Shown here piece after piece: positions 59,093-60,717 of a stretch of 64,000 bases of DNA. Below the pieces are notes generated by a model. That model was given only the letters and a program-made list of their open reading frames with translations. It did not search any database and was not told the DNA's origin. The first letter of the stretch is position 1; every line of letters starts with the position of its first letter. Position numbers and translations under genes: made by a program. Source of the stretch: Kangiellaceae bacterium (GTDB lineage Bacteria > Pseudomonadota > Gammaproteobacteria > Enterobacterales > Kangiellaceae); the NCBI GenBank assembly GCA_039969155.1, contig JBDVOJ010000112.1:3859-67858 (forward strand). Direction: 5' to 3'.

Positions 59093-59187
59093 ACGCCTCG
59101 TTAAGAGGCAAAAAAATAATTGGCTAAAATTAGCGACGAAGGAGCAAAAGCCAACTGTTTTTTGTCCTTTTAAACGACTTGTTATGC
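59093..59187 (-). other. attC-like recombination site (cassette B), truncated in R' by the IS
   Basis: The minus strand reads GCATAAC-AAG-TCGTTTAAAAGG-(loop)-CCTCTTAACGA-GGC-GT|. The spacer pair is the same as in attC A (AAG/GGC) and L'' carries one extra T. The ATPase stop codon TAA lies inside R''. Confidence 0.7.
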
Positions 59188-60717
59188 GCCAACTTCAAAC
59201 GCTTTAATTCCCGCAATCAATTTATCATCAAACGAGTTTAGTAATTCTGTATTCTTAACAAGGATATCCAAGTATTGGTTCACGTAATCAGAATAGGAAA
59301 CTTTCCTACTACTACACATAATTTCTAATATTTTAGAGCAATCTAGAATAGAGAACATATCTTCTGATAATTCATCACTAGTAAGTTTTTCAACTAATTT
59401 TTGTGCGAATAGTGCAGATTTACCTTTGTTGAAAATTTTACCTTTTTGCCGCTGGATTATGCTTAAAATATCTGTTTTAACTTCATCTTCATTTATACCA
59501 AATATTTCAGCACAATAAACTGGCGACAACAGATAGGATTCAATTGAATATTTTTCTAGCTTCACAATCCGATCTTCATTAGTGAACTCTTTATCCTCTC
59601 CAGTATTATCTCCATCTAAAATGAATAAGCCTCTGTTTCTTACAGGTGATGACTCGTGTAGCGACAACCTAAATAGACTTTTAACATTTTCACAATTGCC
59701 ACAAATAATTACATTACACTCAACATTTAGCTTCGCGCAAAGGTGTTCTATAGCAACTTTTTGAGCAGTATCTTCAACAAAAATTGAATTTCCAGTCTCT
59801 AAAATAGTTTCAGTTACGTTTAACAAGTCTCCAACTAATGCTTGTTGTTGCTCTTCCGTAACCTCATTACGGCATTTCACATGCCCTTGTTCCCAGACTA
59901 AAAACTTCACATCTTTATAATATTTATCTGTAAATATAAGTCTAGAGTGCGTACTTATAATTAGTTGTTTATTAAACTTAGAACAAAACCAATCAAAATA
60001 TTCAAATAACCCTTTTTCTAGATTCCAATTAAGGTGAACTTCTGGTTCATCAATGACATATATATGATGCTTATCTTTAGTTACGTACAGATTGAAAGCA
60101 AGCGACAAAATTTCTTGCTGACCGCAACTTAGATTTTCAATATTAAACACAGAAGTGTTATTAGTTTTAAATTTTACGTCAGGTCTACCTGTGTTTTGGT
60201 CCCAATCTGTAGCTAGCTCTAAACTAGGGAATATCTTATCAATTATCTCATTAAATTCTTTAGTTACATCAATGAGCACTTCTTTCGGTGGACGTTCTCC
60301 ACTTTTACATTTCAACTCAAAAAATATTGTAAATAGTTCACCAAACGAAGCATACGTATCAAATGTTTGATCGTTGATTTGTTTGCTTTTTGTTTCGTTA
60401 AGAAGTGTATCAATAGTTTTATTTTGCTGACGTATAAATTGATATAACTGCGCTATATTTTTCTTTTCAGAATTTCGCTTAGGGCTTAAAGCAAATATCT
60501 CTAATTGGTTAGCCGCAGTAATTGTTGCTATATCACTGACAAACTTCAAAGAAGGGTTATTGTTGCTTGCAAATTCTTTAATTTTTTTGATTAATGTCGT
60601 TTTACCAGTACCATTTTCACCACTTAAGAAATTCAATCCCTGATTAAAGCTGATCTTTTCAGTAAAACGACCACTAAACTCATTAAGTTCTATGCTTTGT
60701 AGATATACAGTCATCAA
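59182..60717 (-). CDS. ABC-type ATPase fused to a TOPRIM/DUF4435-like domain (OLD/PARIS-like)
   Basis: 511 aa with Walker A GENGTGKT, signature LSCGQQE, Walker B IYVIDEPEVHL and H-loop ISTHS. The C-terminal about 200 aa carries IFVEDTAQKV...FILDGDNTGE...YSIESYLL (E...DxD...E.Y, TOPRIM-like). Confidence 0.7.
   Translation of the reverse strand: MMTVYLQSIELNEFSGRFTEKISFNQGLNFLSGENGTGKTTLIKKIKEFASNNNPSLKFVSDIATITAANQLEIFALSPKRNSEKKNIAQLYQFIRQQNKTIDTLLNETKSKQINDQTFDTYASFGELFTIFFELKCKSGERPPKEVLIDVTKEFNEIIDKIFPSLELATDWDQNTGRPDVKFKTNNTSVFNIENLSCGQQEILSLAFNLYVTKDKHHIYVIDEPEVHLNWNLEKGLFEYFDWFCSKFNKQLIISTHSRLIFTDKYYKDVKFLVWEQGHVKCRNEVTEEQQQALVGDLLNVTETILETGNSIFVEDTAQKVAIEHLCAKLNVECNVIICGNCENVKSLFRLSLHESSPVRNRGLFILDGDNTGEDKEFTNEDRIVKLEKYSIESYLLSPVYCAEIFGINEDEVKTDILSIIQRQKGKIFNKGKSALFAQKLVEKLTSDELSEDMFSILDCSKILEIMCSSRKVSYSDYVNQYLDILVKNTELLNSFDDKLIAGIKAFEVGA

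Follow-up and report, generated by a model that had tools for sequence, protein, structure and literature searches.

The 64,000-nt stretch of Kangiellaceae DNA analysed here (contig JBDVOJ010000112.1, positions 3,859 to 67,858; called the window in what follows) carries on its minus strand a gene whose product is probably a compact relative of the anti-phage system PARIS, made as a single chain (Table 1). By analogy with its characterised relatives a role in defence is also likely. The class of protein, the fusion of its two halves, the models that annotate it and its cassette setting all have precedents, and the gene does not represent a new type of system. The distinctive points are that the protein belongs to a rare compact clade without the insertion present in the AriA ATPase of PARIS, that its nuclease half is shorter and that its genomic setting is unusual.

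The open reading frame (ORF) at 59182..60717 is intact and encodes 511 amino acids (aa) counted from a TTG at 60717, and residues are numbered from this TTG throughout. The codon directly after it is an ATG (60714), which is preceded by AAGGA, and the NCBI annotation of the same sequence begins at this ATG, giving a protein of 510 aa that is named only as an 'AAA family ATPase'. It is likely that the ATG rather than the TTG is the start codon, which is a trivial correction. An earlier annotation made from the sequence alone (the first-pass annotation) had listed a full set of ABC/SMC-type ATPase motifs in the N-terminal half and all of these were located, i.e., Walker A (GENGTGKT, 60598-60621), the signature LSCGQQ (residues 196-201), Walker B (D223/E224, DE at 60046-60051) and the H-loop (H257). 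The acidic E…DxD…E pattern that it had read in the C-terminal half is likewise present, as the pair E315/D316 (ED, 59770-59775), D368-G-D370 (DGD, 59608-59616) and E393 (59539-59541). Sixty-five homologues were retrieved from 5.8 billion clustered proteins; nearly all are full-length (480-540 aa), and the nearest has 66% identity. When 60 sequences were aligned, G33, N35, G36, T37, K39, S197, G199, D223, E224 and H257 were invariant in the N-terminal half, as were E315, D316 and D368 in the C-terminal half, where D370, E393, Y390 and Y395 were conserved in at least 90% of sequences. The motifs are invariant or nearly invariant columns of the family and therefore not chance matches. The gene had also been judged by eye to be AT-richer than its surroundings, and measurement agrees with this: its GC content is 0.319 compared to 0.377-0.452 in the other 39 non-overlapping 1536-nt segments across the 64 kb. 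The gene is thus compositionally foreign to its surroundings.

The N-terminal half scores above the Pfam cut-offs for AAA_15 (55.5 bits), AAA_21 (40.6 bits) and ABC_tran (28.2 bits), while the match to SMC_N (35.1 bits) lies under its cut-off of 40. The first two scores exceed those by which Rousset et al. (2022) recognise the PARIS ATPase (AAA_15 at 32 bits or more, or AAA_21 at 27 bits or more). When the family profile was searched against sequences in the PDB, the AriA chains of PARIS (8ux9_B and 8v45_A) were the best matches with E 1e-15, followed by Rad50 and by PtuA of retron and Septu systems. Profile positions 4-46 align with AriA residues 5-47 and positions 122-251 with AriA residues 302-428. 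Between the two aligned blocks, from Walker A to the signature side, there are about 255 residues in AriA and about 76 in the compact family.

It is very likely that the C-terminal half is a divergent Toprim domain of the DUF4435/AriB type. The identification is based on transitive homology and fold because the direct Pfam test fails and the structural similarity is modest (see below). The best match of the whole protein is the fused AriAB model of PADLOC (PDLC02981; E 1.1e-22, 78.5 bits), which covers residues 95-404, corresponding to profile positions 224-529 only, of 694. The same model is the sole match of the C-terminal half alone (E 3.7e-4) and also the top match for the relatives P0006 and P0008. 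DUF4435 itself is matched by 14 of the 60 family members (best E 2.3e-7), and its gathering score is passed by a stand-alone relative of 276 aa, P0173 (28.9 versus 27 bits). With P0173 the C-terminal family profile aligns in hhalign over 193 columns (probability 100%, E 5.6e-40), and it also aligns, at 93%, with the longer relative P0193 around DGD…YCIENYLL. An AlphaFold2 (AF2) model of the isolated C-terminal domain, with a predicted local distance difference test (pLDDT) of 88.6 and a predicted TM-score (pTM) of 0.85, retrieved AriB when searched with Foldseek (8v46_D, E 1.9e-3; 8ux9_A, E 6.9e-3). These were the only matches with a probability of 1.0; the next were GajA chains (E ≥ 0.19, probability ≤ 0.28) and there was no OLD chain in the top 50. 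In the model of the full-length protein (pLDDT 90.5) E315/D316 lie after a strand at 311-314, D368-G-D370 after a strand at 363-367 and E393 after a strand at 384-386, and in this predicted structure the order of strands and acidic residues (beta1, beta3, after beta4) is the Toprim arrangement. The Toprim/DUF4435 fold proposed in the first-pass annotation was thus borne out by the AriAB profile, by the alignment with P0173 and by the retrieval of AriB, and it was not recovered by direct Pfam searches or by a profile search of PDB sequences. Matches of the isolated C-terminal half in Pfam were at chance level only (M-HEAT_ATR and others) and included no Toprim domain. A phmmer search of the PDB with the stand-alone relative P0165 gave nothing relevant, and a Foldseek search of viral predicted structures with the C-terminal model gave nothing significant, the best match being RloB-like (E 0.23).

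When 1.84 billion representatives were searched exhaustively with the family profile, about 140 clusters reached E ≤ 1e-30, and most of the top-scoring ones are full-length proteins of 480-517 aa. Judged from these searches, the compact 480-517 aa family is real but rare. The exhaustive search also links it to stand-alone proteins of 250-296 aa and to longer fused proteins of 578-690 aa. Four of the longer fused relatives were tested. Three of them (P0189, P0193, and P0202; 579-683 aa) exceed the thresholds for both AAA_15/21 and DUF4435, and P0205, with 690 aa, scores 19.9 bits. The distribution of the compact family is patchy, with members in bacteria of the candidate phyla radiation (CPR), archaea, Bacteroidota, Acidobacteriota and Proteobacteria, and no match to the window protein was found by tblastn in 72,556 plasmids. 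Three loci of relatives were inspected, and in none of them does the gene have a conserved partner; it stands by itself. The Sandaracinomonas relative adjoins genes for a SoFic-like Fic protein, a HipA-like kinase and an IS3 transposase, the relative in a metagenome-assembled genome (MAG) of Paceibacterota has a large serine recombinase nearby, and the Roseateles relative adjoins PDC-S25 (SIR2_2, E 8e-159) and RmrA (E 8e-121). The patchy distribution and the defence-gene neighbours of relatives fit a role in defence.

In Sediminibacterium sp. C3 (locus L024, 6001-7616) the relative consists of two ORFs of 308 and 230 aa, with an ATGA stop/start overlap at the interdomain linker. The second ORF contains a complete FVED…DGDN…YCIENYLL domain; Ns mask part of this locus. 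As far as the sequence goes, the compact family occurs here naturally as two genes, as canonical PARIS does. The stand-alone DUF4435 relatives were also considered as a sign of a two-gene form and were set aside, as P0165 has no ATPase neighbour, the contigs with P0173 are short, and L024 is the only clear split. The stand-alone DUF4435-type proteins P0165 (L085, 4001-4891), P0166, P0168, P0173, and P0176 are 260-296 aa long and carry about 90 additional aa at the N-terminus. In P0165 this added part is similar to a rubredoxin-like zinc ribbon (E 0.03), and no ABC ATPase gene adjoins the P0165 gene. It is conceivable that these proteins are partner-less Toprim nucleases.

From the sequences that flank it, the gene is the sole ORF of an integron-type cassette, bounded by attC-like sites (Table 1) that were called by manual analysis, i.e., by eye, by matching of inverse cores and by constrained folding. 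On the minus strand, GGCGCATAAC (59181-59190) overlaps the stop codon and its exact inverse, GTTATGCGCC, is found just upstream of the gene at 60758-60767. This is the relation expected between the R'' core of a cassette's own attC and the TTRRRY start of that cassette, and the cassette with the gene begins after G|TT at about 60766. The neighbouring cassettes and the assembly L058 (see below) show the same relation. Without constraints, the upstream attC-like site folds only weakly (z about -1.1 to -1.5). The nearest homologue (P0001, 66% identity) is on a contig of 1.7 kb with GTTATCT upstream and ATAAC cores just past the stop codon, which is suggestive, although the contig ends early. The first-pass annotation had placed the gene in its own promoterless cassette. 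It does lie alone between attC-like sites, but the setting is not that of a classical integron and the downstream attC is split by an insertion sequence (IS). That integron cassettes are reservoirs of defence genes, as was also stated there, is documented (10.1101/2024.07.02.601686; 10.1101/2024.07.02.601719).

Several observations weigh against a relationship with PARIS, or against the transfer of PARIS function and cassette biology to this gene. Pfam DUF4435 (PF14491, gathering score 27 bits) is matched neither by the whole protein at E ≤ 1 nor by residues 270-511 at E ≤ 10, and a search of PDB sequences with the C-terminal family profile (E ≤ 10) recovered neither AriB nor any other Toprim chain. 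The best matches in this PDB search were to EosFP and were discarded as spurious 'DGDG' matches. The structural match to AriB is modest, with E 2e-3 to 7e-3, TM 0.46-0.55 and a root-mean-square deviation of 8-12 Å. In the ATPase half, judging from the alignment, the compact family lacks about 180 residues of the AriA insertion and with them most of the sensor arm. The central-pore and radial-pore loops of AriA (113-124 and 161-174), which are implicated in sensing of the Ocr trigger, fall in this insertion (Burman et al., PMC11464382). As this loop region is missing, trigger sensing as in PARIS is not transferable. Unlike canonical PARIS, which is often virally encoded (PMC11464382), the family had no member in a scan of viral contigs, where the matches were confined to short stretches of the ATPase, in most cases some 40 residues around Walker A. 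A simple scan of the gene strand from the attC to the start codon found no sigma-70-like promoter. No integrase was found within 8 kb upstream, nor by a tyrosine recombinase test among the 10 integrase-sized ORFs of the window; the absence of an integrase and of an attI/Pc platform fits a cluster of attC sites lacking integrase (CALIN) and not a classical integron. Finally, no phage phenotype, trigger or substrate is on record for any member of the compact family.

The window protein shares with PARIS of E. coli B185 (PDB 8ux9 and 8v45-8v49) an ABC ATPase of the AAA_15/AAA_21 type with the Walker A lysine at position 39, and a Toprim domain of the DUF4435 type with conserved acidic residues, which are E315, D316, D368, D370 and E393 in the window protein and E26, D30, D88, E90 and E122 in AriB. 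By sequence the ATPase half matches AriA best, and by structure the nuclease half matches AriB best. The window protein differs from PARIS in having 510 aa in one chain instead of 464 and about 306 aa in two, in lacking the roughly 180 insertion residues with the trigger-loop stretch (PMC11464382) and in having a nuclease half that is about 90 aa shorter. It also cannot release its nuclease, and activation by release and dimerisation is inapplicable as described. The protein had been called much shorter than both the AriA+AriB pair and the OLD proteins; this is correct for the former but not quite for the latter, as the OLD chain of Thermus scotoductus (Ts OLD) has 528 aa.

Single-gene PARIS fusions were reported in 2022 (Rousset et al., PMC9122126), the occasional fusion of AriA and AriB has been restated in later papers (PMC11464382 among them), and 'PARIS_II_merge' is a routine label in genome surveys. 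These fusions (PADLOC 'AriAB', DefenseFinder 'PARIS_*_merge'; about 580-690 aa) have the same domain order in one chain and are matched by the profile of the compact family at E 1e-26 to 1e-37. The window protein differs from them in being about 170-180 aa shorter and in having no direct Pfam match to DUF4435. A PARIS-like gene borne as an integron cassette also has a precedent in Brc59 (Gcu59), an AriAB homologue in a cassette of mobile integrons that reduces virion production by the HK544 prophage more than 1e7-fold (Kieffer et al., 10.1101/2024.07.02.601719). Brc59 is not close to the window protein (no tblastn match in the 72,556 plasmids), and it is carried by class 1 mobile integrons with a Pc promoter whereas the gene in the window is found in a chromosomal cluster without integrase. 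With single-gene PARIS on record from 2022, an existing AriAB profile that matches the protein, the 'PARIS_II_merge' label and an active cassette in Brc59, the suggestion in the first-pass annotation that the gene is an undescribed module has to be abandoned. No mechanistic study of fused PARIS proteins was found in the literature searched.

By analogy with PARIS, OLD and Gabija it is possible to outline how such a protein might work. An AriA-like ATPase (residues 1-296) is joined by a short, flexible linker to an AriB-like nuclease (residues 306-511). The ATPase head would dimerise or oligomerise and keep the Toprim nuclease silent (PMC11464382, PMC12409363) until a phage-derived cue, read via ATP binding or hydrolysis, turns the nuclease on. 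The active nuclease would then cut host nucleic acid and growth would stop before the phage cycle is completed. The best guess for the target is tRNA, as for AriB, given that the domain resembles that of AriB, with DNA as the alternative; as a substrate tRNA can be put forward only tentatively. As both halves form one covalent chain, the nuclease cannot be released and activation would have to take place in cis, by a conformational or oligomeric change. Expression is probably achieved by read-through from co-oriented upstream genes.

If active, the protein would be among the smallest self-contained systems of the PARIS type, with sensor and effector in about 510 residues and without the AriA insertion. 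It would provide a scaffold for asking how fused ATPase-Toprim immune proteins silence and then activate their nuclease without releasing it, and which part of the ATPase sensing truly needs. Defence systems in integron cassettes have been described as systematically streamlined (Darracq et al., 10.1101/2024.07.02.601686), and the gene would add an example from marine Kangiellaceae to this trend, in the particular setting of an integrase-less cluster where an attC has been struck by an attC-targeting IS. It is tempting to speculate further that the compact 480-517 aa family is a true minimal PARIS which has lost the AriA trigger arm, senses and is activated in cis unlike the release-and-dimerise system, and might use another class of trigger or another substrate. 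This is rather doubtful; if true, the family would be smaller than any other self-contained ATPase-Toprim sensor-effector of immunity, and the size limits of integron cassettes would have shaped it.

The protein could alternatively be an ATPase-Toprim nuclease of the OLD family (class 1 or 2, like P2 Old or GajA) that nicks or degrades DNA and is not of the PARIS type. The single-chain architecture, ATPase followed by Toprim, is shared with P2 Old, Ts OLD and GajA of Gabija, which are of similar size. Ts OLD (6p74) is in fact the top Foldseek match of the full-length model (E 1.8e-9), the GajA chains come next, and the GajA profiles of PADLOC match the window protein at E 2e-15. These matches rest on the ATPase head, however, and the TM for 6p74 is just 0.24. 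Once the C-terminal domain is taken in isolation AriB is retrieved first, with GajA and OLD placed as described above. The window protein has no match to PF20469, the OLD-type Toprim, which was seen in one distant relative (P0065), and the bridges through intermediate sequences reach DUF4435 and not OLD; the gene is also without the GajB-like partner of GajA. Membership of the OLD family is therefore unlikely, and the Toprim domain is better described as of the DUF4435/AriB type. A retron-type effector, similar to the ATPase-Toprim of type I-B, would also combine the two domains. The corresponding PADLOC model ('ATPase-Toprim_I-B') matches residues 23-398 (E 4.6e-15) and so spans both of them, and retron PtuA and Eco8 chains are among the fold matches. 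But the AriAB profile fits much better (78.5 versus 53.7 bits), no reverse transcriptase (RT) is encoded among the neighbours, where the adjacent ORFs have no family matches, no RNA family reaches its Rfam gathering score in 52000-64000, and the gene is the only one between its two attC-like sites. An RT gene with a non-coding RNA was not seen beside family members in the loci inspected either. A role as a retron-type effector is accordingly very improbable.

Many chromosomal integron cassettes carry toxin-antitoxin genes. It may thus be asked if the gene is a selfish or stabilising module, i.e., an addiction or toxin-like nuclease that aids persistence of the cassette, or has some other housekeeping role on nucleic acids. 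The annotation of AAA_21 as 'putative AbiEii toxin', the lack of a recorded phage phenotype in the compact family and the lack of an evident promoter would agree with this. No antitoxin-like partner is present, however, and the neighbours differ at every inspected locus. Moreover, the nearest characterised relatives are all anti-phage systems, and the scattered distribution beside defence genes fits defence. Such a role is quite unlikely, and a compact relative of PARIS is the explanation that we prefer.

Table 1. Coordinates of the fused ATPase/Toprim gene, its predicted domains and the adjoining cassette features in the window.
Feature	Position	Strand	Remarks
Coding sequence of fused ABC-ATPase/Toprim (AriAB-like) protein	59182..60714	minus	510 aa from ATG; NCBI gene call agrees
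ABC/SMC-type ATPase head	59830..60717	minus	Residues 1-296; Pfam AAA_15/AAA_21/SMC_N, invariant columns, AriA as best PDB sequence match
Interdomain linker	59803..59829	minus	Residues 297-305; only low-confidence stretch of the model; split point in the Sediminibacterium relative
Predicted DUF4435/AriB-type Toprim domain with helical C-terminal extension	59185..59802	minus	Residues 306-511; PADLOC AriAB, DUF4435 in relatives, hhalign, Foldseek
Preceding cassette ORF	60845..61402	minus	185 aa, no family match; cassette start GTTAGAGGG (61409-61417) is the inverse of its own R''
Upstream attC-like site	60761..60841	minus	R'' CCCTCTAAC … R' GTTATGC; begins directly after the stop of the 185-aa ORF
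Proximal part of the gene cassette's own attC	59088..59190	minus	R'' GGCGCATAAC, exact inverse of the cassette start
IS110/IS1111-type insertion sequence	57532..59087	plus	12-bp inverted repeats ATGACTCCCACT / AGTGGGAGTCAT
Distal remnant of split attC R' core, start of next cassette	57520..57531	minus	
Following cassette	56995..57530	minus	149-aa lipoprotein-like ORF (57081-57530) and attC-like site 56995-57057, z = -2.05

The attC downstream of the gene is broken 103 nt in by an element of 1556 bp. Its transposase (IS110-family DEDD) is split over two frames, 57610..58518 and 58488..58724, and is therefore probably a pseudogene. It is followed by a non-coding tail of about 360 nt, and transposase plus non-coding tail is the layout described for elements of the IS1111 type (PMC11187229). 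The insertion point is the R' core of the attC, GT|TATGT, and attC-targeting IS1111 elements have been reported to insert likewise. Removal of the IS in silico restores GGCGTCTGGT|TATGTC, and the reconstructed attC of 114 nt forms a long imperfect hairpin in which CATAAC pairs with GTTATG (z = -2.59). On the other side of the gene, the 185-aa ORF was considered as a partner protein and rejected, as it belongs to a separate cassette, has no family match and is not conserved beside relatives. An Rfam match to Acido-Lenti-1 on the hairpin of the upstream attC (60803-60840; 24 bits versus a gathering score of 37) is most likely due to chance. No attC was found between the M64 peptidase and GNAT genes or in 61403-61480, and the array therefore begins at about 61417.

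The exact protein is encoded on seven contigs of Kangiellaceae MAGs. In the marine Kangiellaceae bacterium studied here the cassette cluster is located downstream of a gene for an M64 peptidase. Two related Kangiellaceae assemblies (L058 and L059) keep the flanks, with GNAT and M64 genes on one side and a 391-aa ORF and an MBOAT gene on the other, and have other genes between them: two small cassettes, with ORFs of 108 and 173 aa, followed by an LTD nuclease in L058, and a histidine kinase, a response regulator, a TPR protein and an Rce1-like protease in L059. L058 and the window are conserved through GGAATAAACT and diverge right after it. The unit with the 108-aa ORF in L058 starts with TTATCTTC and ends with AAGATAAC…GTTAGGC, i.e., a matching R'' and a canonical R'. 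The locus is a small integrase-less cassette cluster with strain-variable content.

Two duplications were observed around the cluster. About 300 bp past the M64 peptidase gene (61403-61707) are paralogous, with about 60-70% identity, to about 300 bp past the gene for the LTD/Exo_endo_phos nuclease (53501-53891), and this homology stops at the cassette junction; the duplicated stretch could be an attI-like or recombination platform. Similarly, a segment of about 340 nt is duplicated at 52697-53037 and 56353-56693 with 78-85% identity, and ties the 3' end of the 391-aa ORF (51804..52979) to an 89-aa ORF (56366..56635) beside the cassette cluster. Elsewhere in the window, five to six copies of a repeat of about 112 nt are arranged in two blocks at 39842-40903, between two minus-strand ORFs, and were assigned to no RNA or repeat family, and an ORF of 1362 aa at 43814-47902 has three internal repeats of about 1335 nt with 66-79% identity and probably encodes a large repetitive surface or secreted protein.

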